DNA from: an uncultured Eubacteriales bacterium | GTDB lineage: Bacteria > Bacillota > Clostridia > Oscillospirales > Acutalibacteraceae | Reading direction: 5' to 3' | Assembly (NCBI GenBank): GCA_964615315.1 | Contig: CAZTMZ010000003.1 | Coordinates: 45,565-69,564, forward strand | Length of the DNA stretch: 24,000 bases | Part shown: in pieces, positions 1 to 20,434 of the stretch | Layout: each line of letters starts with the position of its first letter | Position numbering within the stretch: the stretch's first letter is position 1 | The notes under the pieces: model-generated | Seen by the model: the letters and a program-made list of their open reading frames with translations, nothing else | What the model was told of the DNA's origin: nothing | Database searches by the model: none | Translations under genes and position numbers: made by a program

Positions 1-261
1 ACTCGTAATAAAAGAGTTGGTGATGTTTCTTGGTCTGAATTTCGTAGGATGTTAACCTATAAATCTCAATGGTATGGGAAACAATTATCTATTGTGGATA
101 GATATTTCCCGTCATCGCAGGCATGTCATGTGTGTGGATATAGAGATGGCAAGAAGTCTGAGGATATTAGAAGCTGGATTTGTCCTAATTGTAAAAGTAA
201 ATTAGATAGAGATGTAAATGCTGCTAAAAATATTCTGAACGAGGGATTAAAAATAATTTAG
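1..261 (+). CDS. tnpB: TnpB-family (IS200/IS605/IS607 OrfB) RNA-guided nuclease, C-terminal fragment; the 5' end lies outside the window
   Basis: Frame 1 is open from base 1 (TRNKRVGDVSWSEFRRMLTYKSQWYGKQL...). It contains a CxxC...CxxC zinc ribbon (CHVCG, CPNCK) followed by the RuvC-III motif DRDVNAAKNI. Stop TAG at 259-261. The layout matches the C-terminus of the full TnpB at 6370-7509. Confidence 0.9.
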   Translation, partial: TRNKRVGDVSWSEFRRMLTYKSQWYGKQLSIVDRYFPSSQACHVCGYRDGKKSEDIRSWICPNCKSKLDRDVNAAKNILNEGLKII

Positions 262-365
262 TAATATATATAAGAACCGTAGGAACTACGGGGATAGCCT
301 AGTGATACTGTATTCGTTGGAATACTTGACTAGGAACCCCGCGACTTTAGTCGTGGGAGGTTCAG
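262..365 (+). ncRNA. Structured right-end RNA: candidate TnpB omega-RNA scaffold and/or intron 3' segment
   Basis: Three clean hairpins. First: ccgtag(277-282)/ctacgg(286-291). Second, nested: cctagt(298-303)/actagg(329-334) enclosing gtattc(310-315)/gaatac(320-325). Third: cccgcgac(338-345)/gtcgtggg(350-357). The region ends ...ttcaG at 365, directly abutting coding sequence. The omega-RNA probably starts inside the tnpB 3' end; that 5' boundary is unknown. Confidence 0.55.
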
Positions 366-3422: not shown

Positions 3423-5177
3423 ATGGCTACTACTAAAACTTTAAATACCAAAATTGCTCTACGTTATGATTCTTATGAAAATTGGATTGCAAATGACCCC
3501 GTACTTATGGCGGGTGAGTTGGCACTAGCTGCTGTTTCTGTTAAGCAGAATGACGTAGTAAACTTTGTGCCCTCTGTTCTTGTTAAGGCCGGTAATGGTA
3601 CTAGTAAGTATTCCGAGTTGGATTATATTTTTGCGAAGGCTGCTGATGTTTTAGAGGCTTGTAAGTCTGAATCTGGTCTAACTGCTTTTGTCAACAACGT
3701 CATTAACAATGCCGGTATTGCTACCGATGAGGCTCTGAATGCACTCAAGACTCGTGTCGCCGCTGCCGAGGGCGACATCGATACGCTAGAAGGTCTAGTT
3801 GGCGATACCGCTGTAGCTACTCAGATTTCTGACGCTATTGCCAAGCTAGATCTTGCCAATACCTATGACGCCAAGGGTTCCGCTGCCGCTGTTCAGTCTT
3901 CTCTAGACTCTTATAAGGCTTCTAACAATGCTGTTATTGCGGCCATCAAGGACGGCGCTGTTCTCGACAGCTTTAAGGACGTTGAAGATCAGCTTGCTAC
4001 TAAGGAAGCCAGTGGTGCTGCAGCTCAGGCTCTAGCCGATGCTAAGGAATATGCTGACGGTAAGGATGCTGCTATTGCCGCTGCTAAGAAGGCTGGCGAC
4101 GACGCTCAGGCCGATGTTGACGCTCTAGAGGCTGCTGTTGGTACTGTTCCTACTGGTAAAACCGTCGTTCAGATGATTTCCGAGGCTCAGACTGCCGCTA
4201 CTTATGATGATACCAAAGTTAAGGCCGACATCGCTCAGAATGCTTCTGATATTGATACCCTAGAGGCTCTTGTTGGTGATACTGCGGTTGCGACTCAGAT
4301 TAGTACTTCTGTAAATGCCGCCAAGACTGAGCTCAAGGGCGGTTCTTCTGATACTGCCTCTTCTGCTACTATTGCTGGCGCAAAGAAGTACGCTGACAGT
4401 CTAAATACTGCTATGGATGCTCGTATAGATGCTATTGAAGCGGCTGTTGGTGAGGGTGGCTCTGTTGGTGCTCAGATTGACGAAAAGATCGCGGCTCTAG
4501 ACGTAGCGGACACTGCTGTTGCTGGTCAGTATGTATCTGCTGTTTCTGAGACTGATGGTAAGATCACCGTCACTCGTGCAGCTCTGCCAGATTACACTGA
4601 GACCTATGCTGCCAAGAAGCATACTCATGCCGTTGCTGACGTAACTGGCCTGCAGACTGAGCTTGACAAGGTTTCTACCCTAATTGGTAGTGACGCTGGT
4701 AAGTCTGCTCGTACTATTGCAAACGAGGAACTTGCCGCGCAGCTAATTCCTGATGGTGCTAAGGAATCTCTAGATACCCTGCAGGAAATTGCACAGTGGA
4801 TTCAGGATCACCCCGACGACGCGGCTGCTATGAATTCTGCTATCGAAGCTCTGCAGACTAAGGTTGGCGATACTTCTGTGTCTGCTCAGATTACTGCGGC
4901 TATCGACGCGCTGAAGATCGGAGATTATGCGAAGGCCGCAGATCTTACTGCTGCTATTGCACGTATTGCTACTCTTGAAGGCGATTCTCATACTCACAGC
5001 AACAAGACCGTACTTGATGGCATTACATCTGATAAGGTAAATACTTGGGATGCATCTGTACAGACCGTTACTGGCGGCACTGGCTTGAAGGCAGCTAAGT
5101 CTGGCACTGGTGTTACCGTTGACTTTGATGATAGTGTCACTTTTGTGTTTGATTGCGGCGATAGTACTAATGCCTAA
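3423..5177 (+). CDS. Tail-fibre protein (Ala-rich coiled-coil), paralogous to 1568..3367
   Basis: RBS aaaggaga is present. The N-terminus is typical of fibres (YDSYENWIANDPVLMAGELALA...KAGNGTSKYSELDY). Shared blocks: HTHSNKTVLDGITSDKVNTWD, LDTLQEIAQWIQD, ALKIGDYAKAADLTAA. Confidence 0.8.
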   Translation: MATTKTLNTKIALRYDSYENWIANDPVLMAGELALAAVSVKQNDVVNFVPSVLVKAGNGTSKYSELDYIFAKAADVLEACKSESGLTAFVNNVINNAGIATDEALNALKTRVAAAEGDIDTLEGLVGDTAVATQISDAIAKLDLANTYDAKGSAAAVQSSLDSYKASNNAVIAAIKDGAVLDSFKDVEDQLATKEASGAAAQALADAKEYADGKDAAIAAAKKAGDDAQADVDALEAAVGTVPTGKTVVQMISEAQTAATYDDTKVKADIAQNASDIDTLEALVGDTAVATQISTSVNAAKTELKGGSSDTASSATIAGAKKYADSLNTAMDARIDAIEAAVGEGGSVGAQIDEKIAALDVADTAVAGQYVSAVSETDGKITVTRAALPDYTETYAAKKHTHAVADVTGLQTELDKVSTLIGSDAGKSARTIANEELAAQLIPDGAKESLDTLQEIAQWIQDHPDDAAAMNSAIEALQTKVGDTSVSAQITAAIDALKIGDYAKAADLTAAIARIATLEGDSHTHSNKTVLDGITSDKVNTWDASVQTVTGGTGLKAAKSGTGVTVDFDDSVTFVFDCGDSTNA

Positions 5178-5199
5178 TATGATATAAATTAATAATTTA

Positions 5200-5230
5200 G
5201 GACCGCTCTGTTATCTCAATAGGGCGGTTC
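5200..5230 (+). terminator. Stem-loop after the fibre gene (weak candidate terminator)
   Basis: ggaccgc(5200-5206) pairs with gcggttc(5224-5230), including one G-U pair. No clear T-tract follows. Confidence 0.3.
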
Positions 5231-5254
5231 TACTACTACTTCTGGGGTGATAAT

Positions 5255-5887
5255 ATGAGCTGTTATGTAGAAAAAGTAATAAAAATTGCAAAGGCCGAAA
5301 TCGGCTATTTAGAAAAGGCAAGCAATAGTAATCTTGATAATAAGACTGCAAATGCAGGAGATAAAAATTACACTAAGTACGCTAGGGATTTGGACAGCAT
5401 TTCTGGTTTCTACAACGGAAAGAAACAAGGGTATCCTTGGTGTGATGTGTGGTTTGACTGGCTGTTTGTTCAAGCATACGGCGTTGAAAGTGCAAAAAGA
5501 TTACTTTGTCAGCCTAACAAGTCGCTAGGTGCTGGTTGTCAGTACTCTATGAATTACTATAAATCAAAAGGACAGCTCTATACTACTCCTAAAATTGGAG
5601 ACCAAATATTTTTTAAAAATAATTCTGATGAGATTGTTCACACGGGGTTTGTGTACGATGTGGATAAAACATATGTATATACAATCGAGGGCAATACGTC
5701 TTCTGCCAGTGGCGTAGTCGCTAACGGTGGCGGTGTATTTGCTAAAAAATATAAATTAACATATGAACGTATCGCGTGTTATGGTAGGCCAGCTTATGAC
5801 ACGGTTGAAAATAAAAATAATACAGCCGCCCATGTGGCAAATGGAGGGACTTGTACTGTGAATCTTAATGTGTTGAAAAAAGGAAAT
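5255..5887 (+). CDS. Endolysin exon 1: CHAP/NlpC-P60-type catalytic domain
   Basis: Catalytic Cys context GYPWCDVW, His context EIVHTGFVY, and TIEGNTS. The exon ends ...VLKKGN on U5887. The TAA at 5888-5890 is the first triplet of the intron. Confidence 0.85.
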
Positions 5888-6345
5888 TAACTAATGCAAT
5901 TTCTAAGCCTAGGTGTAACCGGGCGATTGCATTAGTATAGTTTCCGTATACAGAAATGTGTATGAAAAATTACTCACTGAATTGCTGGAATCCCCTAAAG
6001 CCTATGACGCTACAACGCGAGTCGTAAGACCGAACGTGAATGCAGTGAAAACAGAAAAAAGACATAGGATGATATATGGTTAAATCCTAAGTATCGTAAC
6101 AATGGGCAATCAGCAGCCAAGCTCCCAATTATTGACAACACAATATGAATGTGCTATAATAGTTGTGGAAAAGGTTCAACGACTATCCCGCAAGGGAGTA
6201 GGACACAAGCGATTGGTGTCCGAAGTGGTGAGCACCTAAGTCTCTTATGAGATATGGCGAAGATATAGTCTGTGCTCTACTGAAAGGTAGAGGCGCGAAA
6301 GCGCAGCGAGGCGTAGCGAGCCGATAGGAAAACAACCTTTTCTTA
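5888..6345 (+). ncRNA. Group I intron ribozyme core (IA2-like, with P7.1/P7.2)
   Basis: P1: ggaaaU(5882-5887) pairs with Gtttcc(5940-5945). P1 carries a perfect 10-bp extension hairpin, ctaatgcaat(5891-5900)/attgcattag(5926-5935). P2: gtatac(5946-5951)/gtgtat(5958-5963). Core elements: P aattgctggaa (5980-5990), Q caatcagcagc (6107-6117), R gttcaacgactat (6174-6186), S aagatatagtct (6260-6271). P7 is gactat/atagtc. GNRA-capped hairpins follow: ccc-gcaa-ggg and gcgc-gaaa-gcgc. From memory, the 3' core closely resembles the phage T4 td intron (AACGACTATCCC...GAGTAGG...GAGATATAGTCTGCTC). Confidence 0.85.
6132..6160 (+). promoter_or_regulatory. Perfect sigma-A/sigma-70 consensus promoter inside the intron (P6 region), facing tnpB
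   Basis: TTGACA (6132-6137), a 17-nt spacer (6138-6154), then TATAAT (6155-6160). A TG at 6152-6153 gives an extended -10 (TGcTATAAT). The homologous ORF-less intron has only a short hairpin at this position. Confidence 0.6.
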
Positions 6346-6369
6346 TCATGAATGAGAGGAGGTGCAACG

Positions 6370-7509
6370 ATGATTAAATCTTTTATAGTAAGGTTATACC
6401 TAACGAGAATACAAGAGGAGCTGGCGTGGAAGCACGTTGGCGCTTGCAGGTTCATTTGGAATTATATGCTTGACTACCAGCAGAGGTTATACGAATCAGA
6501 AAAGAAGCATCTACCTGCCTTTAGTATGATAAAACTTCTAACTCCGTTGAAGAATGACGGAGAGCATGGCTGGCTGTACGACGTATCGAACTCTTCCTTG
6601 CAAACAATCTGCCGCGATTTGGACGGAGCCTATCAGTGTTTCTTTAAGAAGGCTGCCGGTTTTCCGAAGTTCAAGTCGCGTAAGAAGAGTAAATCGAATT
6701 TTCCTGTATGCTGCAATAGATTCTACTTTGCAGACGAGAACTTCGTACAGATACAGAAGCTCGGCAAGGTTCGTTTCAAAACGGACTTTGAGCTTCCGAT
6801 TGGACGCGAGCATAAGTTCCTGAACCCCAGAATTTCCTACGTTAATGGGAAATGGCTACTGTCTTTTAGCATGGAGTGCGAGAACCAAGCGCCTGTATTG
6901 ACAGACAAGCCCATGGGTATAGATTTAGGTATTAAGGATTTAGCAGTGGCAGAATTTGACGGAAGGCCCATTGTCTTTCATAACATCAACAAGTCGAAGC
7001 GTATGCGGCAGCTCAAGCAGAGGCAGAAGCACTTGCAGAGAAGTATCTCCCGCAAGTACGAAGCGAATCGCAAGGGCAACCAGTATGTGAAGACGAAAAA
7101 CATTGAAAGGCAGGAGGAACAACTCCGCAAGCTCTATTCTCGAATCACGAACATCCGAACAAACTACATCCACCAAACCACACACGTTTTGGTTTCTCTC
7201 CTGCCTTGTCGAGTCGTCATGGAAGACTTAAACGTACAAAGCATGATGAAGAACCGACATCTGAGCAAGGCAATTCAGGAGCAGGGGTTCTATGAATTCA
7301 TCCGCCAAATGCAGTACAAGTGCGAGTGGAACGGTATCGAGTTCGTTCAGGTTTACAGGTTTTATCCGAGCAGCAAGACATGTTCCAAATGCGGCAACGT
7401 CAAGCGGAACCTGAAGCTGTCGGACAGAACGTATCATTGTGATTCGTGCGGAGCAGTAATTGACCGAGATTACAACGCTGCCATTAACCTTAGCAGATAC
7501 GTAGTCTAA
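6370..7509 (+). CDS. tnpB: TnpB RNA-guided DNA endonuclease (379 aa)
   Basis: RBS aggagg lies 7 nt before ATG 6370; the track start at 6352 is unlikely. The N-terminus MIKSFIVRLYLTRIQEE..CRFIWNYML is typical of TnpB. RuvC-I GIDLGIKD, RuvC-II VVMEDLNV, zinc ribbon CSKCG...CDSCG, and RuvC-III IDRDYNAAINL are all intact. Confidence 0.92.
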   Translation: MIKSFIVRLYLTRIQEELAWKHVGACRFIWNYMLDYQQRLYESEKKHLPAFSMIKLLTPLKNDGEHGWLYDVSNSSLQTICRDLDGAYQCFFKKAAGFPKFKSRKKSKSNFPVCCNRFYFADENFVQIQKLGKVRFKTDFELPIGREHKFLNPRISYVNGKWLLSFSMECENQAPVLTDKPMGIDLGIKDLAVAEFDGRPIVFHNINKSKRMRQLKQRQKHLQRSISRKYEANRKGNQYVKTKNIERQEEQLRKLYSRITNIRTNYIHQTTHVLVSLLPCRVVMEDLNVQSMMKNRHLSKAIQEQGFYEFIRQMQYKCEWNGIEFVQVYRFYPSSKTCSKCGNVKRNLKLSDRTYHCDSCGAVIDRDYNAAINLSRYVV

Positions 7510-7633
7510 TTGAAGAGACTATGGTCTTGAGGTGTTGTTGCACCTTTAAGCTGTGGAGAGCCATACAAACTTGAGTAGTTACGACGAAAGAGGGCTTGAT
7601 GAAGCAGTAAGTTTAGTTTGCTAAACACAACAG
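7510..7633 (+). ncRNA. IStron 3' structured region: candidate omega-RNA scaffold ending at the 3' splice site
   Basis: Hairpins: agac/gtct, aggtg/cacct and gtttag-tttg-ctaaac. They lie just before ...acaacaG7633. The position relative to the tnpB stop matches the TnpB omega-RNA paradigm. The scaffold probably starts inside the tnpB 3' end. Confidence 0.55.
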
Positions 7634-7819
7634 AAAAATAGTTCCGTAAAAGCATTGCAAATATTGTTAATTGGAAATGGCTATTCTTGTGGCTCTTATG
7701 GCGCAGACGGAGATTTCGGTACGGGAACGTATAATGCGGTTGTAAAATTTCAAAAAGCAAAAAAGATTGGCGCAGATGGAATTGTTGGAGCACAAACATG
7801 GGAGAAGCTATTAAAGTAA
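7634..7819 (+). CDS. Endolysin exon 2: PG_binding_1 cell-wall-binding domain
   Basis: Translation: KNSSVKALQILLIGNGYSCGSYGADGDFGTGTYNAVVKFQKAKKIGADGIVGAQTWEKLLK*. This fits the PG_binding_1 pattern (V..LQ.LL...GY.....DG.FG..T..AV..FQ......DG.VG..T...L). It has no start codon or RBS of its own. The frame is closed upstream at TAA 7622-7624. Confidence 0.85.
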   Translation, partial: KNSSVKALQILLIGNGYSCGSYGADGDFGTGTYNAVVKFQKAKKIGADGIVGAQTWEKLLK

Positions 7820-7832
7820 GTGGTGATGCTTT

Positions 7833-8853: not shown

Positions 8854-10275
8854 ATGGGTAAGAAGTTAACTAAAGAAGAATTTATTAAAAGGGTTTATGA
8901 AAAAAATGAGCATGTAAGAAATGGAGAACTTGAGATTCGTGGAGAGTTCGTTGGGACAAAGGAACCAATAGAATGTTTTTGTACAATCCACCATGTTTTA
9001 TGGAACCCTAGACCGGACGATTTGTGGAAAGGAATTGGGTGTAGACAATGTGGGAGTGTAAAAACAGCGGACAAAAGGCGTGTAGATGCGGACACAATTA
9101 ATAGACGATTAGAACAAATAAATAATGGCGTTAAAATGATTGGTAAATGCTTCGGCGTTAGAGCGGAAACTGAGTTTCAATGTAGTTTGAATCATACATG
9201 GAGAGATCGACCTATTGATATTTTGAACGGCGTAGGATGCCCATATTGTAGCGGACATCGTGTTTGGGTTGGATTTAATGATTTATGGACAACACGTCCT
9301 GATGTTGCGAAGTTGTTATTGAATTCTAACGATGGCTATAAATATACATACGGTTCTAATAAAAAATTAGAATTTATTTGTCCAATTTGTGGGTCTATAA
9401 TAATAAAGTCCGCAAAAGAAGTCTGTCAAAATGGATTAGTTTGTCAACTTTGCTCTGATGGTATTTCATATCCAAATAAGCTTGGCAGGTTGTTATTAAC
9501 ACAGCTCAATGTAGAGAATATAAGATATGAGTGGAGCCCGGATTGGATCCAATCTTATTCTTACGATAATTATTTTGAATATTGTGGAAAAGCATATATT
9601 TTAGAGTTTGACGGTGGACTTGGGCATGGTAAAAAGAAATATAAATCAAATGAGCGCGATGTTATTGGCAAAGAAAGAGATATTTATAAAGATCGTTTGG
9701 CAGCAGATCATAATATAAAAGTTATAAGAGTCGATTGCGATTACACTGGAAAATGTAATGATCGTTTTATGTATATAAAAAATAATATTTTACAAAGTGA
9801 ATTGTGTAGCATTTTTGATTTGTCTTGTGTTGATTGGGAATATTGTGATTGTAATGCGCAAAAAACATTGATAAAACAAGTTGCGGATTTATACAATCAA
9901 GGTTTAAGCGTATCAGAAATACAAAAGATTGTAGGTTATTATATTAATACTATCCGTAAATGGTTAACTACGGCATCTAAATATAATTTATGTAATTATA
10001 ATAGAAAAGAGTCTAAAAGAAGAACAACTGATTCTATATACCGTTATATTAATCAATATTCTACAAATGGAGAATTTGTGAGAACATATAAATGTGTAGC
10101 TGAAGCCAGTGAAATTACTGGAGTTGATGATTCTTCGATTTATGGATGTTGTAAACATTATTCTGGGCATAAAACCGCAGGTGGATTTTTATGGTTTTAT
10201 GCTACAGATCTATATCAACCAGATAAATCAAAGATTATTGAATTAGCAATACAAAATGAATGTAAGGAGGTGTAA
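8854..10275 (+). CDS. Free-standing protein resembling a homing endonuclease: Zn-ribbon repeats + Vsr/PD-(D/E)XK-like core + HTH/NUMOD1-like DNA-binding C-terminus
   Basis: RBS ggagg is present. There are three Cys/His ribbon modules (CTIHH..CRQCG; CSLNH..CPYCSG; CPICG..CQLCS). The core motif YILEFDGGLGHG...ERD..KD is typical of Vsr/DUF559-type nucleases. An HTH follows (GLSVSEIQKIVGYYINTIRKWL). The C-terminus reads INQYSTNGEFVRTYKCVAEASEITGVDDSSIYGCCKH..KTAGGFLWFY, typical of phage homing-endonuclease DNA-binding repeats. The gene looks visibly AT-rich. Confidence 0.55.
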   Translation: MGKKLTKEEFIKRVYEKNEHVRNGELEIRGEFVGTKEPIECFCTIHHVLWNPRPDDLWKGIGCRQCGSVKTADKRRVDADTINRRLEQINNGVKMIGKCFGVRAETEFQCSLNHTWRDRPIDILNGVGCPYCSGHRVWVGFNDLWTTRPDVAKLLLNSNDGYKYTYGSNKKLEFICPICGSIIIKSAKEVCQNGLVCQLCSDGISYPNKLGRLLLTQLNVENIRYEWSPDWIQSYSYDNYFEYCGKAYILEFDGGLGHGKKKYKSNERDVIGKERDIYKDRLAADHNIKVIRVDCDYTGKCNDRFMYIKNNILQSELCSIFDLSCVDWEYCDCNAQKTLIKQVADLYNQGLSVSEIQKIVGYYINTIRKWLTTASKYNLCNYNRKESKRRTTDSIYRYINQYSTNGEFVRTYKCVAEASEITGVDDSSIYGCCKHYSGHKTAGGFLWFYATDLYQPDKSKIIELAIQNECKEV

Positions 10276-10278
10276 CCG

Positions 10279-12250
10279 ATGGAAATTATAAACGCTTTTA
10301 AAACTGTAACTGAACAAATTAAATCTTGGGTTGACGAGAATAAAGTGCAAAAAGTAAGCGGGAAAGGACTTTCTACAAATGATTATACCAATATAGATCG
10401 CCAAAAAGTAGAAGAAATGCCAAATGACTTAATGATTCTTAATGGAAAATTATATCTTGCACAGGATGGAACCCCAATTGACAGTTCTGCGGTACAGCTT
10501 CCTGAAGGTGGTGGCGGAGGCGGTGGTTCGAGTGCTACGATTACATTAAAGAATTTGCTAGATTCGTCCATCATAACATCTGCCGTTGGAAATTCAGTAG
10601 TTTTAAAATTCAGTTTTGCATCGTCTGAGGCAGATAGTGGTATGGCTTATATTTATGTCGGCGGTGTTCTGAAGGGTACGGCAGCTATAATTGCCGGAAG
10701 CAATACGTTGGATATTTCAGAATATGTTGGAGAAGGTTCCAATGAAGTTAAATTAACATGTATGGACGTGTATAGCAATAGTAAAAGCTTGGCGTATACT
10801 GTCAACATGGTTTCGTTGAGAGTGACATCTACTTTTGATGATTCTCAAGTTTATTCGGGCGATATTAGTGTTCGTTATATTGTTTATGGTGCAGTAGAAA
10901 AAACTATGCATTTTGTGGTCGATGACACAGATACCACTGTAACAGTAAGTGAAACTGGAAAACAACGAACACAGGTTTTACCAGCAATGTCGCATGGAAC
11001 ACATTTATTAAAAATTTATGCAACGGCTACAATTAATGGTGTTGAAGTTAAAAGCAACGAATTATTGTTTGATATATTGTGTGCCGTGGAAGGTGCGACT
11101 ACTCCGATGATTTCTTCTGCCTGTAACGTTATATCTGTAACCCAAGGAGAATTGATTAATATTCCATTTGTGGTTTATGATCCTTCTAATATGGAAACTG
11201 AAATTACTCTTACTATATCGCAGAATAACGAAATATACTTCACTTCTATGAGAACCGTAGATCGTACAAAACAAACTTGGAGTATAAGAAATTATCCTGT
11301 TGGCGAAGTAACTTTTACTATTACATATGGTGCTATTAGTAAAAGTCATATGATAACTGTTGCAGAGAATAATATTGATGTTTCTGTAAAAACAACGGAT
11401 TTAGAATTCCAACTTAGGGCGGCAGGTAAATCCAACGAAGATACGGATCGCGACACTTGGACTAGCGGCGACGTAACTACTATGTTCGAATACTTAAACT
11501 GGGAATCTACTGGTTGGGTTGCGGACGATGACGGTGATGTTGCTTTAAGGTTGTCTGGTGATGCAAAGGCAACAATTAATTTTATGCCGTTTAAATCAGA
11601 TGCTCGTCAGACAGGTAAAACAATTGAAATGGAATTTGCCATTCGTGATGTTAATAATCGCGATGCCGTTGCGATTTCTTGCTTGAATGGCGGTATTGGT
11701 TTTACTGTTACTGCAGATACGTTTGTAATGACAAGCGAACAGACGAAAATTAGTTGCAATTATACTGATGAAGAAAAGATAAGAATTGCTGTTGTAATTG
11801 AGCCACGTAGTGAATACCGTATGATGAGCGTTTATTTGAATGGTGTTTTATCTGGTGTTGAACAGTACCCCGAAACAGATAACTTTCAACAAACGTCTCC
11901 TACGAATATCGTTATTGGTTCTGAATATTGTTCTGTTGACTTATATACCATCCGTTCTTATGATGTAGCATTAACCGCAGATGAAATTAAAGACAATTAT
12001 ATTGCCGATATTACTGACATTAGTGAGAAAGCAGCGTTATATTCGGACAATGATATCTATGATGCGTTTGGTAATTTAAGCTTTTCTGCACTGAAGGATA
12101 AAATACCTGTGTTGGTTATTACGGGCACTTTGCCAACATATAAGGGAGATAAGAGAAAAGTAACTATTGCGTATACAGATCCACTAAATCCCAGTCTGGA
12201 TTTTGAGGATAGCGCAACAATTGATGTACAAGGCACATCAAGTCAGTATT
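10279..12250 (+). CDS. Giant tail/receptor-binding protein, exon 1
   Basis: RBS aaggagg is present. Fibre motif KVSGKGLSTNDYTNIDRQKV, a Gly7 linker and beta-rich domains. The exon ends ...IDVQGTSSQY + t at U12250. The track ORF runs on 35 nt into the intron, to TGA at 12283-12285. Confidence 0.8.
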
Positions 12251-12620
12251 CGAAATTTGGATACCGTATTGAGAAATCAGTATGAAAAAATACTCGTTTA
12301 ATTGCTGGAACACCCTAAAGACAAATAAACTACAACGTAAAGATGAAATATGCTTAAGCGTGAATGTTATGAAAATAGAAAAAAATATTTGTATGAGAGC
12401 GAGGTTAAATCCCCTGCTCTTTTTTAATGGGCAATCAGCAGCGAAGCCGTGAATAACGGAACGTTCAACGACTATTCTGAAAGGAAGTAGGCTGTAAGCG
12501 ATTGACAGTCGAAATGGCGAGGACCAGAAATGGTTAAGATATAGTCTATACTCAATGGAAACATTGAGAAGGAGAAATCCTTAGCACAGGAGTAGCGTCC
12601 TATGTTTAATACAATAGATG
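12251..12620 (+). ncRNA. ORF-less group I intron (370 nt), homologous to the IStron ribozyme
   Basis: P1: gtatUc(12246-12251)/ggatac(12259-12264), with U12250-G12260 at the splice site. P2: gtattg(12266-12271)/cagtat(12278-12283). Core elements: P aattgctggaa (12300-12310), Q caatcagcagc (12432-12442), R gttcaacgactat (12463-12475), S aagatatagtc (12536-12546). GAAA-capped P9 hairpins: ctcaatg-gaaa-cattgag and aagga-gaaa-tcctt. The terminal G12620 is the only G that both lies after the in-frame TAG (12593-12595) and restores the frame. Confidence 0.85.
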
Positions 12621-15600
12621 TTCGTAAAAACTGGAAAATTAAAACTTCAGAATATCATACATTAGATTTAGATCAAGTTCCTACAAAAATATTTTGCTGG
12701 AAGGCTGACTATGCTGAGGCGACTGGTAGCCACAACACGAGTACGGCTAATTATGCTCATATATTATATGGAGATGCTAAAACTCCGCCGCAGGAAGCCG
12801 ATTCTCGTGTAAGAACTACTGTTTATGGAAGACCAAGTGTAATTTTTCATAAAGCAGATAGTAGTTCGGACCCCGTATTTTACGGAAAGGCAAATGCAAA
12901 TATAGATAAAGGAGCACTTGAATGCTTTGGTTTTACTGAAGATTATTCAGATGCCCAGTGTGTAGAATTTTGCAATAACGTTTCAGAGGCATGTTTATTC
13001 CACAAAGAGATATCAGATGATTGGTCTGATGACTTTGAATTTCGTCAGCCCGATGGATACACGGATATCTCTGACTTCAAAATTGTACACGATTGGACAG
13101 TTAGCACATGGCAAGATGGGGCAACTGGAACTGCATTGAATGGATCGTATACAGGCATTGATGGTACTGTTTATACTAATGATACTGCGGCATATAGATT
13201 AGCAAAATTCAAGAAAGAATTTACAGATTATTATAATTTGGATTTTTGTTTAGTTTATTATGTGTTGACGTTTGTGCTAATGTGCGTAGACCAACGTGCG
13301 AAGAATATGTTTTTAACAACTTGGGACAAGGTTCATTGGGAGCCGTGGTTTTATGATAATGATACAATTTTAGGCATTAATAACGAAGGTAGATTGGTCT
13401 TCAGTCCTTTTTTGGAGGATGACGATCAGCTTGATGGAGCAAATGTTTTTAATGGAGCCACAAGTGCCCTTTGGGTGAATTTTAGAGAATCTTTCCCTAA
13501 TGAGATTCAGGCTTTGTATGCTTCTTGGCGTAGCGAAGGATTGTTAAGTTATGATCAGATAATTGAATATTTTATAACTCGCCAAACTGACAAATGGTCT
13601 ATTTCAGTTTACAGTGAAGATATAGATTTTAAGTATGTCTCTTTGCTGAGAGATGATGATGATGGTACTTACTTATATCAAGTAAGAGGTACTGGTGAAG
13701 AACATTTAAGATACTTTACTAAAGCTAGACTTAATTACTTAGACTCTAAGTGGTGCTGCGGTGATTATCCAAGTGATTACGTTTCGTTGCGTATTTATAC
13801 TCCAATGGATGAAAATAATAATCCACTAACTAATTTGCCAGTAGCTGCCAATCCAGATATTACGATAACACCTTATGAAAACACCTATGCAGGCGTTCAA
13901 TTTGGCGCAGGTAGTAACATTAATCAATATAAGGCGTATCAAAATGTTCCAATTACGCTTAAGTGGACAATGAATGGTTCTCCTAATGACCTTGAGACTT
14001 CGGTATTCCCGGCTTCTCAGATTAGTTCTTTGGGTGATTTGTCTCCTTTGTATTGCGGCACGATTAATGTTAGCAAAGCAGAGAAGTTAACTGAATTAAT
14101 TGTTGGCAATCAAACAAAAGGTTATTCCAATAACAATCTAACTGAATTGGCAGTTGGTGCCAATAACCTATTACAAAAAGTAGATATTTGTAACTGTCCT
14201 AATCTAGTTAAACCATTAGCGCTTTCTAACTGTCCAAATATTCAAGAAATTTATGCAATAGGTTCTGGTATTACTGGTCTTGAGTTGCCAACCTCTGGTT
14301 ATCTAAAGAAGGTGTATTTGCCAAATACTTTAACCAACCTAACAGTAACCAACCAACAATATATTGAAGAATTCGTTCTCGAAGGTTATGACAATTTGAC
14401 TACTCTTCGTATTGAAGATACTGTTAATATTCCTGTCGAAGACATAATGCTTAATGCGCCGAATTTGAATCGTATTCGTCTTATTGACGTTCAATGGGAA
14501 GCAGAGTCTGAGGCAGCGCTTGTTCAAACAATTGAAAAATTTAAGTCTTGTTTGGGTTTGGATGCTAACGGCAATAATACTGAGAACGCCATTGTTACCG
14601 GTAAAGTGCATGTCGCAGAGAAAGTCTCCAATGAAGTTTTCGGTGATGTTTATAATAGTTTCCCAGATCTTGTTATAGATGACGGCAGTGAAGAAATCTA
14701 TATTCTTAACTACAAAGACCGTGATGGTAAAATATTATATTCTACTAGAGTCGCAGAAGGGGCGAATGCGATAGATCCGATTGCACAGGGTTATATTGAG
14801 ACCCCAGACCCAATTATAACAGACACATATAGATATGAATTCGTCGCTTGGAGTACATTGCCAACCAACATTCAGAGGCATTATGTAATTATTGCGCAAT
14901 ACCACACTAAGTTTGCTATTAAATTTTATAATGAAGAAACATTATATTATACTCAGTGGTCCGTACAAGGCGACCCAGCTATCGACCCTGTTGTATCCGG
15001 CGCAATCACAGCTCCAACCAAGTCTGGCACGTCCGATATAAGCTATAAGTTCTCTGGTTGGGACAACCTGCCAACGAACGTTCAATCCACAGTTAACGTA
15101 TATGCTCAATACGATACCTATTGGGCTGTAAGATTCTGGAACGACAGTGTATTGTATTTAACAGAGTGGATCATCGAAGGTGGCAAACCCGTTAATCCTA
15201 GCACTTATTCCGAGGATTATACCAATCCAACTCGTACAAGTACGGCGCAATATGACTATCACTTCTCTAGTTGGGATGGTGACTTTGATACCGAAGTAAC
15301 ATCAACAAGAGAATTCTACGCCGTATATTCCAGTACAATTCGTAGATATAATGTCTACTTCTACAATGATAACGAACTGCTATACACCGTAGAAAATGTC
15401 CAATATGGTAGCAGTGCGTCTTATAGTGGTAGCACACCAACAAAACTCGGCGTTGAAGATCCAGACGAATACGTATTTAAGGGCTGGCTGCCTGCGCCTG
15501 AAAATATCACTGGCGAAACTAAATGTTATGCGCTGTATAAATTTACTGGTTACCTATTTGGTAAGTTAGGCAAGACTGATGATGACGATCAAGGCTATGG

Positions 15601-16321
15601 AACAGTTGATAGTCCAAACTGGGATGCGATCAATGCCTATTGGACAACTATTGCTGCTGATGTCTCATCCTACCAAAATGGTATTTTGGCAGAAGATGAT
15701 TTTACTGCAAAATATCAAATTGGTGGCCGAATGATTGTTCCAATTAACCTTTCGGATGGTACATCTACTATGGCAGATGTTGAAATTATTGCACACAACC
15801 ATGATAATCTAGCGGACGGCTCTGGTAAGGCGGCTTTAACATTCTTCTGTAAAGATCTTCCGCAGGTTCAGCGTGCTATGAATGAGTCTACTGTACTTAC
15901 TGGTTATAAAGATAGTATAATGCGTACTTTTGTCAATGAAGAATTGTTTGGCGTTCTTCCCAATGAACTAACGTTGGTAATCAAACCCGTAAAGAAAATT
16001 TCTGATGGTGGTGCGCAAAATCAGACACTAGTAACTACGACGGATTATTGTTGGATTGCGTCATATGATGAAGTTGGTTTTACTTCTGGTGGCTCAAATA
16101 TTTCTGGGCAGGGAGAGTTGTATGATGAAATATTTTCTAACAATAACAGTCGTAAAAAGTATATAACTGATAGCACCGATACTGGTGGATGGTGGCTGCG
16201 CACGTCAGTTCGTTCTACAAATTTAAGCAGCACTATGTTTTACAGAGTTCAGAAGTCGGGTGCGGCATATACGGATATTCAGACGAATCAATTTTATGTT
16301 GCATTTGGTTTTTGTATCTAA
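12621..16321 (+). CDS. Giant tail/receptor-binding protein, exon 2: CotH-like domain, LRR region, four Listeria/Bacteroides-type repeats, C-terminal WWLR domain
   Basis: The splice junction reads GTSSQY-F-RKNWKIK, which fits a CotH-type motif. A CotH-like core is present (DQRAKNMFLTTWDKVHWEPWFYDNDTILG). LRRs span about 14040-14480 (LTELIVGN..LTELAVGAN..CPNLVKPLALSNCPNIQEIY). Repeats span 14699-15538. The C-terminus contains GGWWLRTS. The spliced product is 1890 aa. Confidence 0.8.
14699..15538 (+). repeat. Four tandem coding repeats of about 70 aa (Flg_new / Listeria-Bacteroides repeat-like)
   Basis: The units start YILNYKD, FAIKFYN, WAVRFWN and YNVYFYN. Each ends in Y.F.(A/G/S)W....V......YA.Y (EFVAWSTLP..IIAQY; YKFSGWDNLP..VYAQY; YHFSSWDGDF..FYAVY; YVFKGWLPAP..CYALY). 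Confidence 0.7.
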
Positions 16322-16359
16322 TATGGGTTTATCTCTACCTAAAAAATAAGAGGTATTAA

Positions 16360-16390
16360 GTAGAGCTGGGCAACCGGCTCTACTTTATTA
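16360..16390 (+). terminator. Rho-independent terminator
   Basis: A 10-bp stem gtagagctgg(16360-16369)/ccggctctac(16374-16383) with a GCAA tetraloop, followed by tttatta. Confidence 0.75.
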
Positions 16391-16418
16391 TATTGAAATC
16401 TAAGGGAGGTGAATCTAT

Positions 16419-17021
16419 ATGACTGGTTTTGAAGAATTTTTAACTCTATTTGGAGGCATTACGGTTTCTCAAATTGTCGTTTTTGTGTTTGCGGTTATCT
16501 TTTTATTCTCTGTCTATAAAGAGATTAAAAAGTACGTCAACGTAAAAATTAAAGAACAGCAAACAAAAGCAGATGAAGAAAAGAATAACAAAAAGAAACT
16601 TGAAGAAGCGTGGGTCGCAACACAAAAGTATCCAGAGTATCGTAAAAAAAGTTTAGAAATACAGGAACTTCTTGAGGGCGAAATCCAAGAAGTAAAAAAC
16701 ACAGAAGAGACGGTAACAGAAGAATTAAAGAAACTGTCTTTACGTCTTGAAAAGATGGAGGAAGACACGAAACGCCGTGAGCGTAATCGTCTCAGAGATC
16801 TGCTGCTGAATCATTATCGTCATTATACAAACAAAGAACTAAATCCGTCACAATCATGGACGAGCATGGAAGCGGAGACATTCTGGGCGTTATTTAGCGA
16901 TTATGAGGATGCAGGTGGAGATGGTTACATGCACACTACGGTTCAGCCAGAAATGGAACGTTTACTAGTTGTGAACGTAGGTGAACTACCACAGACCGTA
17001 ACGGCCTGTGGCTTCCATTAA
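16419..17021 (+). CDS. Hypothetical membrane-anchored coiled-coil protein; its 3' end runs into the IS left end
   Basis: RBS gggagg is present. N-terminal TM segment ITVSQIVVFVFAVIFLFSV, followed by a charged coiled-coil. The last roughly 18 codons (from about 16966) and the stop codon lie inside the IS200/IS605 left-end hairpin structure. Confidence 0.6.
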   Translation: MTGFEEFLTLFGGITVSQIVVFVFAVIFLFSVYKEIKKYVNVKIKEQQTKADEEKNNKKKLEEAWVATQKYPEYRKKSLEIQELLEGEIQEVKNTEETVTEELKKLSLRLEKMEEDTKRRERNRLRDLLLNHYRHYTNKELNPSQSWTSMEAETFWALFSDYEDAGGDGYMHTTVQPEMERLLVVNVGELPQTVTACGFH

Positions 17022-17031
17022 ATAGTTCACC
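16980..17031 (+). repeat. IS left-end (LE) subterminal hairpin
   Basis: Outer 9-bp stem: ggtgaacta(16980-16988)/tagttcacc(17023-17031). Inner hairpin: ccacag(16989-16994)...taa...ctgtgg(17006-17011), with an inner GC stem ccg/cgg. It has the same architecture and the same CCACA/TGTGG core as the RE hairpin. Confidence 0.7.
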
Positions 17032-17268
17032 AGACTAAGTATTCAGAAACGAATACTACGATGATTACATTATGACACCCTTGGTTGACGCAACAGACCA
17101 CTGCTCTGTCGTATATCTTTAAGTTGGGTTGGAATAAGCAAAGCCCTGTGAGATATACATGTAAGTGTATTCATCATTGTCGAGTTGAGGACGGAACAAT
17201 TGTATGGTAACAGTACAATGTAGTACGCATTACCTGCCATTAGGCAGAGTATTTATAAGGAGAGGCTT
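17032..17268 (+). ncRNA. Candidate IscB omega-RNA scaffold (may extend 5' through the LE to about 16966)
   Basis: A long non-coding leader lies immediately 5' of iscB, which is the canonical omega-RNA location. Hairpins: agtattc-agaaac-gaatact (17038-17057), attgta-tggtaacag-tacaat, and ctgcc-atta-ggcag just before the RBS. No ORF is present. Confidence 0.5.
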
Positions 17269-18543
17269 ATGGTTTATGTAATTTCACAAGATAACAAACC
17301 ACTAATGCCTTGTAGTAATGCGATAGCAAGATTGTTATTAAAACAAGATAAGGCAAAAGTTAAGAAACGCAAGCCATTTACAATTAAATTGACTTATGAA
17401 ACAACAAATTATACACAAGAACTAACTTTAGGTGTTGATACTGGAAGTGGAACAATTGGCACTGCCGTTAGTAAAGATAATGGAGACATTGTTTACATGT
17501 CGGAGGTTATTGTCAGAAATGATATTACTGATAAGATGACACAAAGAGCAAAGTATCGTAGAAACAGACGAAATCGTAAAACTCGATATAGAAAGGCAAG
17601 ATGGTTAAATCGTGCCAATTCTATTAAAAATGACAGATTCAGTCCTACAATGCAAAGTAAACTTCATAGTCATGTAAAGGAAATAGAGTATATTAAATCC
17701 ATTCTTCCGATTACAAAAATGGTATTTGAAACTGGTCAGTTTGACACTCACCTTATGAAGAATCCATGTCTTGCAAATCCTAATGTAAGACATTGGGGAT
17801 ATCAAAAAGGTACAAATTATGGATTTGAAAACACAAAAACGATGGTTCTTAATCGAGACAATTATACTTGTCAACATTGCAAAGGCAAACACAAAGACAG
17901 TAAATTAGAAGTTCATCATATCGTATTTCGTAGTCAAGGTGGTTCAGATGAAGAAAGCAATTTAATCACACTTTGTCATACTTGTCATAAGAATTTACAT
18001 GACAGAAAAATTAAATTAAATCTTAAAGGCAAAACGAAAGGCACACTTAAATATGCCACACAAATGAATTCTATTAGAAAACAACTTTTCAGATTATATC
18101 CTGATGCGATTGAAACATTTGGATATGTAACAAAAACAAATCGTTTACAGTTAGGTGTAGATAAAGAACACTATTATGATGCTTGTACTATTGCGGCACA
18201 AGGGAATAGCTTTACTGTGAAAAGCAATCTCTATAAGAAAAAGTCTATTCCTGATGGTGATTTTCAGAAAACAAAAGGCATTCGTTCCGAGCAACCTATT
18301 ACAACTGGAAAGATTTGTGGATTCAGAAAGTTTGATAAGGTTCGCTACTTTGGAAATGATTATTTTATTAAAGGAAGAATGTCAATTGGATATGCAATTC
18401 TTATGGATATAGATGGTAACAAAATTGATTTTTCAGCAATGCCTAAAGGTTACAAAACACCAAAGATGGTAAATCTAAAAAGATTGGAGGCTCGGTCAAC
18501 ATGGATGATTACAACCGTGGTGGTCACTCCAAATACAGCATGA
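17269..18543 (+). CDS. iscB: IscB RNA-guided nuclease (424 aa; Cas9-ancestor type, RuvC with inserted HNH)
   Basis: PLMP motif at residues 11-14 (QDNKPLMPCS). RuvC-I LGVDTGSGTIG (D57). Arg-rich bridge helix KYRRNRRNRKTRYRKARW. RuvC-II MVFETGQFD. HNH CQHCKGK..LEVHHIVFRSQGGSDEESNLITLCHTCHKNLH. RuvC-III EHYYDACTIA. A C-terminal domain of about 100 aa follows. Confidence 0.92.
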   Translation: MVYVISQDNKPLMPCSNAIARLLLKQDKAKVKKRKPFTIKLTYETTNYTQELTLGVDTGSGTIGTAVSKDNGDIVYMSEVIVRNDITDKMTQRAKYRRNRRNRKTRYRKARWLNRANSIKNDRFSPTMQSKLHSHVKEIEYIKSILPITKMVFETGQFDTHLMKNPCLANPNVRHWGYQKGTNYGFENTKTMVLNRDNYTCQHCKGKHKDSKLEVHHIVFRSQGGSDEESNLITLCHTCHKNLHDRKIKLNLKGKTKGTLKYATQMNSIRKQLFRLYPDAIETFGYVTKTNRLQLGVDKEHYYDACTIAAQGNSFTVKSNLYKKKSIPDGDFQKTKGIRSEQPITTGKICGFRKFDKVRYFGNDYFIKGRMSIGYAILMDIDGNKIDFSAMPKGYKTPKMVNLKRLEARSTWMITTVVVTPNTA

Positions 18544-18905
18544 AAGTGCATCTGATATTTGTAACCAAATATCGCAAGAAAATATTCAAATCAGATAAGC
18601 GAGCAGATGATGTCAAACAGTCTTTGTATGACACAGTTAAGAAATATGGCTACAAAATCATACAAATGGAAACTAACAAAGACCATGTACATATATTACT
18701 TGAGTATAGTCCAAAGGTGTCTGTTGCAGACATTGTAAAACAACTCAAGCAGTATAGTACATACCAGATGTGGAAATATCATGAAGAATATCTATCCAAA
18801 CAGTATTGGAAACACAAAATACTTTGGTTTGACGGATATTTTGCTTGCAGTATAGGGCAAGTTTCTCAAGAAATTATTGAGAAGTGTATTCAAAACCAAG
18901 GTTAA
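18501..18905 (+). CDS. tnpA: IS200/IS605 Y1 (HUH) transposase TnpA, with Cys at the catalytic Tyr position
   Basis: RBS ggagg lies 10 nt before the ATG. The gene overlaps the iscB 3' end by 43 nt. Motifs: VHLIFVTKYRKK, and HUH in NKDHVHILLEY. The C-terminal helix ...SQEIIEKCIQNQG aligns to IS608 TnpA ...LNVVKQYIENQ, where Y127 is the nucleophile. Here the codon is TGT. Confidence 0.9.
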   Translation: MDDYNRGGHSKYSMKVHLIFVTKYRKKIFKSDKRADDVKQSLYDTVKKYGYKIIQMETNKDHVHILLEYSPKVSVADIVKQLKQYSTYQMWKYHEEYLSKQYWKHKILWFDGYFACSIGQVSQEIIEKCIQNQG

Positions 18906-18915
18906 AAATAACGAA

Positions 18916-18957
18916 CGCCGTGTATCCACACGCCTAAAGGCATGTGGTTTTACGGCG
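18916..18957 (+). repeat. IS right-end (RE) subterminal hairpin
   Basis: Outer stem: cgccgt(18916-18921)/acggcg(18952-18957). Inner hairpin: ccaca(18926-18930)...taaa...tgtgg(18943-18947), with an inner GC stem gcc/ggc. Confidence 0.7.
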
Positions 18958-19021
18958 GATAACTTATAAATAATCTACAATGTAAAACATGTTTGATTAG
19001 TAATGGAGGTTGAAAAAAGAT

Positions 19022-20434
19022 ATGCCTAATGAATATTTTAGCCCAACATATTCAACTGACCATATTTGGAGAGAACAAGATATGGAGCGGTGTTTATCTG
19101 ATGACTTAAATAATATTGAATCGAATATTACCACGTTACAGACTGGCAAGGCAGCAGCGGATCATACTCATACGGCTTCAGCCGTTGGTGCGTTACCTTA
19201 TATTGATGCAAGAAGTGCGGACTATAATATGGATACAATTTTGACTAGTGGGGTACACTATAATACATATCGCTTTAATAACACTACACTTGGTACGCCA
19301 TATGCAAAGGGAGCGTCAACGTTATCTAGTGGTTTAATTATTAGCTGCGCTTCTTCAACAACTAATGGCAAGCAAATTGCTTATGTTAACGGGTCTAGGT
19401 GCCATTTTGAACGCAGAATGTATAATGGTGTGATTGGCGATTGGGTGAATACTTACAACTCCGAGTATTTACCATCTTTAAGTATACTTGGGGCGGCTGC
19501 AGCAGAACATACTCACAATGTATTTAGTAGCCTGACTGAAATTGGTATTACCACATTTCCAACTACGATGCAGGCAGTATCTGAAGCAATGCCTATAAAT
19601 AGTATGATTATTATGGACACAAGAAGGATTAATGGCGCTGGCACAACTTATGGCACAGAGACTATTTCTGATTGGGGAAGTGCAATTAATGGTACTGCTA
19701 TCATTATCAAGGGTGTTACAACTGCTCGTATTACTATGATGATTTTGTATGGCACAACAGCATCAACTACTACTGGATTTTATTATGGAAATTATGCCCA
19801 CGATTCAAACGTTGTAAATTGGGATAGTTTAAATAGTCAACTTAATGATAAGGTTGATAAAATTAGTACAAAGGGATCCGTAGATTTAAATACTGTCACT
19901 GAAACCGGACTATATTATGTTACTTCTGGCGGATCTTCCAGCAATCATTTTCCGATTGGCACCAACGGACATCTGCTAGTTATGTCTGATGGCGCCCGTG
20001 TGAGACAACTGTTCTTTAGAGTTGGCACTGTAGACACTAATAGTTATCAATGGTATTCTCGTAGCCTTGGTTCTGATACCACTGCGGGTGTTGATGGTAA
20101 CGGCTGGAGCCAGTGGTGGCTACTATCTGGCTATGAAAAGGTTTGGAATGGTGGTACAGTGTTAAATTCTGAAATCAATATTGGTAGCAGATATGGTTGC
20201 ACTTCTTGGGTAGTTGTTGCTCGTCTACAGAACACTGGTGCTTTGGCGTCAGTTGTAATTCCTCGTGCTTTCTTAGTGTCTGATACAACTACGTATAGAT
20301 TCCAAATTGCTGATGAGACGGCTTATATCAGTTTTTATATCTATTACAAGAGTGACAATGACGTTTATTTAAAGGTTGTAGATCAAACTGATAGCATTTA
20401 TACTACGTTAAAATATGTTTATCGAATGAGCTAA
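19022..20434 (+). CDS. Tail-fibre / receptor-binding protein (470 aa)
   Basis: ATG 19022 lies 12 nt after ggagg; the track's TTG at 19010 abuts the RBS. It has HxH fibre motifs (AADHTHTASAVGALP, AAEHTHNVFSS) and a unique beta-rich C-terminal domain. Confidence 0.65.
   Translation: MPNEYFSPTYSTDHIWREQDMERCLSDDLNNIESNITTLQTGKAAADHTHTASAVGALPYIDARSADYNMDTILTSGVHYNTYRFNNTTLGTPYAKGASTLSSGLIISCASSTTNGKQIAYVNGSRCHFERRMYNGVIGDWVNTYNSEYLPSLSILGAAAAEHTHNVFSSLTEIGITTFPTTMQAVSEAMPINSMIIMDTRRINGAGTTYGTETISDWGSAINGTAIIIKGVTTARITMMILYGTTASTTTGFYYGNYAHDSNVVNWDSLNSQLNDKVDKISTKGSVDLNTVTETGLYYVTSGGSSSNHFPIGTNGHLLVMSDGARVRQLFFRVGTVDTNSYQWYSRSLGSDTTAGVDGNGWSQWWLLSGYEKVWNGGTVLNSEINIGSRYGCTSWVVVARLQNTGALASVVIPRAFLVSDTTTYRFQIADETAYISFYIYYKSDNDVYLKVVDQTDSIYTTLKYVYRMS

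Follow-up and report, generated by a model that had tools for sequence, protein, structure and literature searches.

IscB is the transposon-borne ancestor of Cas9. Its gene rarely lies beside a transposase gene of its own: about 1.5% of iscB genes do, and about 98% of bacterial IscB elements are without tnpA (10.1101/2023.03.14.532601). Here we describe an element that carries both genes, found in a stretch of 24,000 nucleotides from an assembly of an uncultured Eubacteriales bacterium (GCA_964615315.1, contig CAZTMZ010000003.1; the whole stretch analysed is referred to as the window). It is a discrete IS200/IS605-family element of ISC2Y-type layout, lying in what proves to be the late region of a phage. 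Elements of this kind and layout are already known, and our findings leave the known working of such elements unchanged. The points of interest are modest: the rare iscB-tnpA arrangement, the phage host, a family that recurs in many phage genomes and an apparently freshly disabled transposase.

In layout the element resembles ISC2Y-1_KR of Ktedonobacter racemifer (PMC4810608), in which an iscB with an HNH insertion likewise precedes, on the same strand, a Y1 transposase gene that overlaps it. The two elements share subterminal imperfect hairpins, lack a target-site duplication and are inserted directly upstream of a short A-rich motif. They differ in the iscB-tnpA overlap (43 nt in the window, 82 nt in ISC2Y-1_KR; PMC4810608) and in the target motif, which is ATAAA in the window as against GT^GG or N^ATGA/ATAA in the ISC families (PMC4810608; here and below, ^ marks a joint). 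The hosts also differ, a gut phage as opposed to a bacterial chromosome, and the window TnpA has a cysteine at the catalytic tyrosine. ISGst of Geobacillus stearothermophilus (10.1101/2023.03.14.532601) shares with the window element a HEARO-like omega RNA upstream of iscB, bounded by the right end (RE) and with a guide derived from the flank. In both, the target-adjacent motif (TAM) abuts the left end (LE) and is common to TnpA and IscB, and the element runs in the direction of the upstream gene. The ISGst IscB has been proposed to cut the empty donor joint and so restore the element (10.1101/2023.03.14.532601). The ISGst element is non-autonomous, mobilised in trans and uses the TAM TTCAT, whereas the window element has TTTAT, which is the GstTnpB2 TAM, and a tnpA of its own that is probably dead. 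For the window element we expect the mechanism demonstrated for the Geobacillus IscB and TnpB elements.

Two further systems bear on the individual proteins. OgeuIscB, whose structure is solved (7utn, 7xht), matches window IscB residues 1-312 with E 4.8e-41, a span that takes in the PLMP domain, RuvC I-III, the bridge helix and HNH, and the two proteins have the same conserved acidic and histidine residues. At 424 aa the window IscB falls about 70 residues short of OgeuIscB (495-496 aa), a single-sequence search detects no similarity in its C-terminal domain, and its likely TAM is ATAAA, as against the NWRRNA cited for OgeuIscB in PMC12660989. IS608 and ISDra2 (2a6m, 2xm3) have, like the window element, a HUH Y1 transposase, end hairpins at unequal distances from the ends and a pentanucleotide 5' of LE. 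They carry tnpB, with a guide RNA at RE on the transposase top strand, whereas the window nuclease is IscB on the opposite strand; the catalytic tyrosine present in their TnpA is replaced in that of the window.

Results and discussion

A discrete insertion at the end of a phage late gene

Read in the direction of iscB, the element consists of the right end, the omega RNA, iscB, the overlapping tnpA and the left end (Table 1). Profile, structure-database, RNA-family and comparative tests are concordant and support an IscB/omega RNA/TnpA element that entered a phage late region as one discrete unit. The initial annotation had placed such an element at 16966..18970, a span close to the guide, element and target motif as defined here (16965..18970), and the RRXRR, HNH and Y1_Tnp models all matched. 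Each feature of that annotation was recovered at the given coordinates or a few bases away.

The boundaries were examined in 29 IMG/VR loci from an IscB protein scan, whose IscBs are 60-88% identical to that of the window, and in about 20 further loci found in species-representative genomes, for the most part metagenome-assembled genomes of gut Firmicutes, and in Ktedonobacter. When upstream regions were aligned, similarity across about 45 related loci started at exactly 16981 (GTGAACTACC), with unrelated flanks upstream, and the HEARO matches in nine relatives (Rfam) share this start base. At the right edge of the relatives a hairpin is followed by TTTT(A/C), about 13 nt and ATAAA, which is conserved; beyond it their flanks diverge. 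The whole series of LE-type hairpin, TTTT(A/C), about 13 nt and ATAAA was seen again in at least 20 relatives, the ATAAA being kept beside right flanks that are otherwise unrelated. On the transposase strand the motif reads TTTAT, a documented IS605-family TAM (10.1101/2023.03.14.532601; PMC13565253).

Comparison with related phages gave a filled/empty pair, confirming that such elements are discrete insertions. In contig L032 a 1603-bp IscB-only relative, with an IscB 84% identical to that of the window, lies between ...CCGTATTA and ATAAATGACTTG. The related contig L151, whose flanks are 92-95% identical to those of L032, is empty and reads ...CCGTATTA-ACAAA-TGACTTG. The L032 junctions are ...GTGTCCGTATTA^GTGAAC...(1603 bp)...TTTTAT^ATAAA-TGACTTGAC, against ...GTGTCCGTATTA-ACAAA-TGACTTGAC in L151. 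The insertion is precise and without target-site duplication, and the pentanucleotide thus belongs to the flank and not to the element. Searches for empty sites of L005, L007 and L008 found none, so that only L032 of the four succeeded. L151 is the sole empty allele found, and it has ACAAA where the occupied allele has ATAAA. This difference may be a chance product, given that the flanks are 5-8% diverged; it is also a change of the type that would stop TnpA insertion as well as IscB cleavage.

In the window the upstream open reading frame (ORF) extends 41 nt into the element, which encodes its last 13 residues (188-200, GELPQTVTACGFH). Homologues of this gene came from protein searches of viral and metagenome contigs and served for comparison of the C-termini, not as a base-level empty site. 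In 21 homologues (43-61% identical), similarity ends at window residues 185-190 and each protein stops soon after; that of contig L001 ends ...KLPIIDV, level with ...RLLVVNV (187) in the window. Precise excision would yield gta^GAT AAA TAA and a protein ending ...VDK, the predicted element-free joint being ...GTGAACGTAG^ATAAATAATC. The L146 homologue ends ...TDK, encoded by GATAAATAA, which is the string expected after precise excision from the window (g^ATAAATAA). The insertion thus hit the stop codon of a gene that runs in the same direction as the element: its target ATAAA overlapped the stop codon of this phage late gene. Together, the identical ends of the relatives and the C-termini of these homologues indicate that the window element, too, was inserted precisely, and place its ends by homology.

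The phage setting given in the initial annotation was confirmed by the genes around the element and by the related loci on viral contigs. Among the PHROG matches in the neighbourhood are endolysin, tail fibre and large phage structural families, and Pfam recognises a phage tail repeat. The region upstream of the element is 70% identical to L001, a 93-kb IMG/VR contig that carries the homologous gene without any insertion.

Table 1. Features of the window, with the occupied and empty sites compared in relatives. Positions are those of the window unless a contig is named.
Feature	Position	Strand	Remarks
Whole mobile element	16981..18965	+	1985 bp; IS200/IS605-family, ISC2Y-type
Predicted 16-nt omega RNA guide	16965..16980	+	CTAGTTGTGAACGTAG; last bases of upstream phage gene, outside the element
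Omega RNA scaffold	16981..17268	+	HEARO core 16981..17197 and two further conserved hairpins reaching the iscB ribosome-binding site
Subterminal imperfect hairpin, RE	16989..17011		CCACAGACCGTAACGGCCTGTGG; 8 nt from element end; transposase RE hairpin, also an omega RNA stem
iscB	17269..18543	+	424 aa, apparently intact
tnpA, Y1 HUH transposase	18501..18905	+	134 aa, ORF intact; overlaps iscB by 43 nt
Cys129 codon of tnpA	18885..18887	+	TGT (TAT, Tyr, in relatives); position of the catalytic nucleophile
Subterminal imperfect hairpin, LE	18926..18947		CCACACGCCTAAAGGCATGTGG; 18 nt from element end; transposase LE hairpin
Flanking target motif ATAAA	18966..18970	+	TTTAT on transposase strand; predicted TAM, 3' of the IscB target
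Upstream phage gene	16419..17021	+	natural end replaced by the insertion; C-terminus comparison with homologues
Occupied site in L032	3708..5315 of L032		filled/empty comparison
Empty site in L151	3036..3071 of L151	-	filled/empty comparison
Apparent endolysin exon 1	5255..~5885		PHROG endolysin
Group I ribozyme, complete	5940..6292		Rfam, 84 bits
IS607-type TnpB, complete	6352..7509		
RAGATH-18 RNA of IS607-type TnpB	7550..7610		
Apparent endolysin second exon	~7640..7820		reads by eye like a peptidoglycan-binding domain, ending ...GADGDFGTGTYNAVVKFQKAKKIGADGIVGAQTWEKLLK before the stop
Second group I intron	12239..12568		Rfam, 74.6 bits; between ORFs 10279..12285 and 12602..16321

Omega RNA, guide and end hairpins

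A structured omega RNA leader had been proposed upstream of iscB, and RNA-family and covariation analyses agree with it. The Rfam model HEARO (RF02033), which represents the IscB omega RNA, is matched over its full length on the forward strand with 99.5 bits (gathering score 83; E 1.2e-19). RNAalifold predicted 54 pairs from 36 non-identical homologues, and for 40 of them at least one sequence has compensatory substitutions in both partners. Covariation can also be seen in the alignment, by eye, for the terminal hairpin and for two hairpins that lie 3' of the Rfam model (about 17198..17250). At 17234..17247 there is a hairpin resembling a terminator, and a T-rich run follows the last hairpin just before the iscB ribosome-binding site.

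The predicted guide lies directly 5' of the scaffold; its length of 16 nt is set by analogy with characterised IscBs. The sequence at this position differs in every related locus, as expected for a guide derived from the flank, and that of the window has no second match within the 24 kb at up to three mismatches.

The two subterminal hairpins are the only matches to the hairpin pattern in the 24 kb (0.00 occurrences in shuffles), and the stem of the one on the omega RNA side co-varies among relatives. In IS608 and ISDra2, LE is cleaved well upstream of its hairpin, beside the target motif, whilst RE is cut a few bases beyond its own hairpin. Meers et al. (10.1101/2023.03.14.532601) describe an omega RNA bounded by RE, a TAM 5' of LE that is common to TnpA and IscB, a TTTAT TAM, and elements co-oriented with the upstream gene. 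Judged by this work and by the hairpin-to-end distances of 8 and 18 nt, the omega RNA side is RE and the ATAAA side is LE. The hairpins thus form a homologous pair bounding the element, as initially annotated, with the LE and RE labels swapped. By the same rule, the transposase top strand is the window minus strand. Kapitonov et al. (PMC4810608) found tnpB of IS605 partners that share ISC ends to be oriented opposite to iscB.

An ordinary, rather short IscB

The window protein is an ordinary, rather short IscB. Pfam RRXRR (PF14239) matches residues 2-181 across the whole profile (positions 1-174 of 174, E 4.4e-54) and Pfam HNH matches residues 201-246 (E 1.2e-11). A literal PLMP motif is present (KPLMPC, residues 10-15), and the Arg-rich bridge helix RAKYRRNRRNRKTRYRKARW (residues 93-112) aligns with the corresponding stretch of OgeuIscB. 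The RuvC residues D57 (GVDTGS), E154 (VFETGQ) and H301/D304 (EHYYDA) align with GIDPG, VLELN and DHYLDA of OgeuIscB. Seventeen homologues show no variation at D57, E154, H301 and D304, at the HNH histidine pair H216/H217 or at the zinc-binding CxxC pairs C201/C204 and C236/C239. The hallmarks first read from the translation, namely the PLMP domain, split RuvC, inserted HNH and Arg-rich bridge helix, are thus all borne out by Pfam, the Protein Data Bank (PDB) and the motifs themselves.

A C-terminal TAM-interacting domain had also been proposed. A profile of 17 sequences matched PDB IscBs with E 1.9e-65 and aligned HfmIscB (9k2z) through profile position 388 of 415, in agreement with that proposal, whereas a single-sequence PDB search with the last 115 aa gave no significant match, only noise. 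The protein deviates at 4 of 264 highly conserved columns (K35, T191, S326 and I373), none of them a conserved catalytic-motif position. Loss of a zinc site through C326S was considered and ruled out, homologues carrying Ser, His or Ala at 326. The exact protein was not on record in the gene-position index.

A transposase with cysteine at the catalytic position

As initially annotated, an IS200-type tnpA overlaps the 3' end of iscB. The ORF matches Pfam Y1_Tnp (E 4.1e-32) and the TnpA structures of ISDra2 and IS608 (2xm3, 2a6m; E 1e-14 to 3e-12). It has the HUH motif (H62-V-H64), and a ribosome-binding site, GGAGG, lies 10 nt upstream of its ATG.

HUH Y1 transposases act through a single tyrosine nucleophile, located in the C-terminal helix (Y127 in IS608, Y132 in ISDra2). 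In the window TnpA, which ends ..IEKCIQNQG, Cys129 aligns with the catalytic tyrosine of wild-type ISDra2 TnpA (..IQKYIESQ), its relative 2fyx (..IQQYIENQ) and IS608 TnpA (..VKQYIENQ). Position 129 is Tyr in all nine complete TnpA homologues from the fetched loci. It is also Tyr in 116 of the 120 closest TnpA cluster representatives (73-95% identical, from a collection of 5.8 billion proteins), the remaining four being truncated or frameshifted; Cys occurs in none of the 120. Cys129 is one of three deviations at the 52 columns conserved to at least 95%, with N59 (for D) and F110 (for S). The catalytic tyrosine of an autonomous IS200/IS605 (ISC2Y) transposon is thus replaced in this copy. With its single nucleophile changed, TnpA is most likely unable to excise or integrate the element, unless the base call is wrong, and the window element most likely cannot excise or transpose by itself. 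The element had been called autonomous-looking, which holds for its layout, whereas self-mobilisation is doubtful. The transposase looks freshly disabled.

Relatives in phages and bacteria

The IscBs from species-representative genomes include those of Lachnospira (88% identical), Anaerostipes and Oscillospiraceae; those of Ktedonobacter are 57-58% identical. The family is large, comprising at least 7,996 proteins at E <= 1e-10 and more than 120 IscB clusters that are 83-89% identical. Some contigs carrying the family reach 698 kb and are probably bacterial chromosomes. In viral contigs the family occupies about 20 different sites. A near-full-length IscB match is present in all 29 related viral loci (one cut by a contig end), and an adjacent intact tnpA in only two; L019, L025 and L029 have internal tnpA deletions. 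That tnpA is mostly lost and IscB kept in viral relatives fits the view that these elements home without transposition.

Full-length relatives exist. L154, L155 and L157 are 84% identical to the window element at the nucleotide level from end to end (16981..18973 for L154). Like the window element, those of L154, L155 and L157 (human-gut phage-like contigs, ENA) have the same ends and ATAAA and are inserted at the 3' end of a co-oriented gene. They differ in insertion site and in that their TnpA keeps the catalytic tyrosine (..KKYIQNQG). The ENA human-gut assemblies L152-L157 (locus 4477..6473) hold variants of the element at one single site: complete in L154, L155 and L157; without iscB in L156, where omega RNA and tnpA are kept; and without RE, omega RNA and most of iscB in L152 and L153. 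The exact TnpA of the full-length relatives, 88% identical to that of the window, is indexed in 632 blocks of a metagenome collection, with phage-like contigs of 56-116 kb.

Among deposited phages, Clostridium phage c-st and Clostridioides phage pCD1602_4 have IscB homologues about 37-40% identical. The c-st record (NC_007581) labels its homologue only 'HNH endonuclease', and that of pCD1602_4 is without annotation. In JGI the relatives are labelled '5-methylcytosine-specific restriction endonuclease McrA'. No dedicated paper on phage-borne IscB elements was found in the literature searched, although one may exist.

Some related IscB elements lie beside tRNA genes: those of L005, L017 and L083 adjoin Rfam tRNAs, and those of L013 and L029 have downstream sequences that look tRNA-like by eye. 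In a subfamily formed by L010, L011, L012 and L022 (about 3650..5300) the left terminus is diverged, GTAGGTATCTACAAAC..., and downstream of iscB a right-end hairpin could not be recognised. In these four, sequence resembling their own upstream flank (ATAATTGTA..CGTAC) recurs downstream.

Proposed mechanism and alternative explanations

We consider it likely that 16981..18965 is an ISC2Y-type IS200/IS605 copy, inserted without duplication 5' of ATAAA, which cannot move by itself and persists as an RNA-guided homing and retention module, transposing only if a related TnpA acts in trans. Transcripts running on from the upstream late gene would yield an omega RNA with 5' 16 nt derived from the phage flank and a scaffold of about 290 nt that would bind IscB. 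This complex would cut copies of the locus that lack the element, where the 16-mer directly precedes ATAAA. The occupied site would be protected because GTGAAC, and not ATAAA, follows the guide match. Recombination repair from a genome bearing the element would then copy it in, so that the element would be restored after excision or spread to a co-infecting element-free phage. With TnpA disabled, the restoring role would fall away, leaving homing into element-free genomes at co-infection. We infer each of these steps, from RNA production and guide length to cleavage and homing, by homology with experimentally studied systems (10.1101/2023.03.14.532601).

Several points weigh against this reading. 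The element-free allele of this phage was not found among deposited phages, in IMG/VR or by protein-based searches. Near-identical genomes were absent among 50,697 deposited phages (megablast, window 16000..20000), and the left and right flanks had no exact match in IMG/VR, from which it follows that the phage of the window is not in that collection and that its own element-free allele was not retrieved. The exact ends therefore derive from relatives and from protein comparison at about 50% identity. In one widespread human-gut phage-like lineage, in which the same insertion also occurs complete, iscB has been deleted and tnpA kept (L152, L153 and L156), so IscB is not always the part retained. 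Only a profile alignment links the C-terminal domain to the TAM-interacting domains of IscBs. Finally, one A-to-G difference is all that separates the Cys codon from that for Tyr, and an error of sequencing or assembly could have produced it.

If such an error were present, or if cysteine were tolerated, TnpA would work and the element would be a fully autonomous transposon that both transposes and homes. Its intact frame with GGAGG site and HUH motif, the two intact end hairpins with the flanking ATAAA, a closest TnpA that is 95% identical (indicating a young copy) and the wide occurrence of full-length, Tyr-bearing relatives are all in keeping with this. We nevertheless think it unlikely, as Cys129 stands at the catalytic tyrosine of ISDra2 and IS608, none of the 116 full-length close relatives has another residue there than Tyr, and N59 and F110 depart from conserved columns as well. 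To our knowledge, no HUH transposase has a cysteine nucleophile. At the other extreme, the element might be an inert relic, with TnpA, IscB and omega RNA all inactive and the insertion tolerated at the extreme 3' end of a gene. The probable knock-out change in TnpA and the four deviating IscB columns would suit a relic. By contrast, IscB is complete in length and keeps every conserved catalytic-motif residue, one of the four columns (326) also holds Ser, His or Ala in homologues, the omega RNA scores above the gathering threshold over the full model and both ends are intact; we hold decay of this extent to be improbable. Least credible is a protein-only HNH homing or restriction endonuclease of McrA type that is not RNA-guided, as the JGI naming of relatives and the c-st annotation would have it. 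The full-length RRXRR/split-RuvC match, the strong similarity to solved IscB-RNA complexes and the adjacent HEARO RNA with its extensive covariation effectively refute it.

Two further ideas go beyond a retention module. The transposon may be turning into a pure RNA-guided phage homing element that spreads among co-infecting gut phages as an RNA-programmed gene drive and not by transposition, with tnpA switched off or lost and IscB, omega RNA and ends kept; this is possible, and we put it forward tentatively. Were it true, ACAAA in L151 could be an escape mutation. Alternatively, the phage may have co-opted IscB and its omega RNA for competition between phages: with transposition off, they would mainly cut element-free relatives at co-infection and bring about marker exclusion or a gene drive, a function beyond selfish persistence. 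In favour of this, plasmid populations have been reported to show TnpB-driven spread that does not depend on TnpA (PMC13565253). Co-option would also accord with the loss or disabling of tnpA and retention of iscB in most phage copies, with the roughly 20 viral sites occupied and with the homing-type elements of the window (two group I introns, two TnpBs and an HNH/NUMOD1 ORF). This evidence is purely circumstantial: ordinary non-autonomous bacterial IscB elements predict the same pattern (about 98% are without tnpA; 10.1101/2023.03.14.532601), and in one lineage it is iscB that was deleted. Co-option is thus a doubtful proposition, with a low probability in our estimate.

A single IscB family, annotated 'HNH endonuclease' or 'McrA', occupies the sites described above in gut phage genomes and has thousands of metagenome homologues. 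Phages, with many recombining copies and frequent co-infection, lend themselves naturally to a direct measurement of RNA-guided homing. With the guide, the motif ATAAA and the exact ends defined, a homing experiment can be designed, and the Tyr-to-Cys transposase provides a natural transposition-off variant.

Other selfish elements in the window

The late region is unusually dense in selfish elements: besides the IscB element it holds two introns, two TnpBs and an ORF resembling a homing endonuclease. Of the two TnpB genes initially annotated, one is complete and the other is a C-terminal fragment cut by the window edge (1..258). The endolysin gene (5255..7820) appears to be split by an IStron-like composite comprising the first group I ribozyme, the complete TnpB and its RAGATH-18 RNA. 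The two ORFs on either side of the second group I intron both match phrog_14959 and are therefore probably one gene. L001 aligns at 70% identity straight across this intron and so probably carries it too.

At its left edge (1..367), the window starts inside the C-terminus of the truncated TnpB (...CHVCGYRDGKKSEDIRSWICPNCKSKLDRDVNAAKNIL) and continues with about 110 nt that look structured and end ...GGAGGTTCAG. An open frame at 351..1550 with a match to a phage family adjoins this sequence, which may represent one more TnpB element or an IStron within a structural gene. The free-standing ORF at 8854..10275 resembles a homing endonuclease, with a match to a PHROG HNH endonuclease (7e-29) and weak NUMOD1 and HTH (helix-turn-helix) matches.

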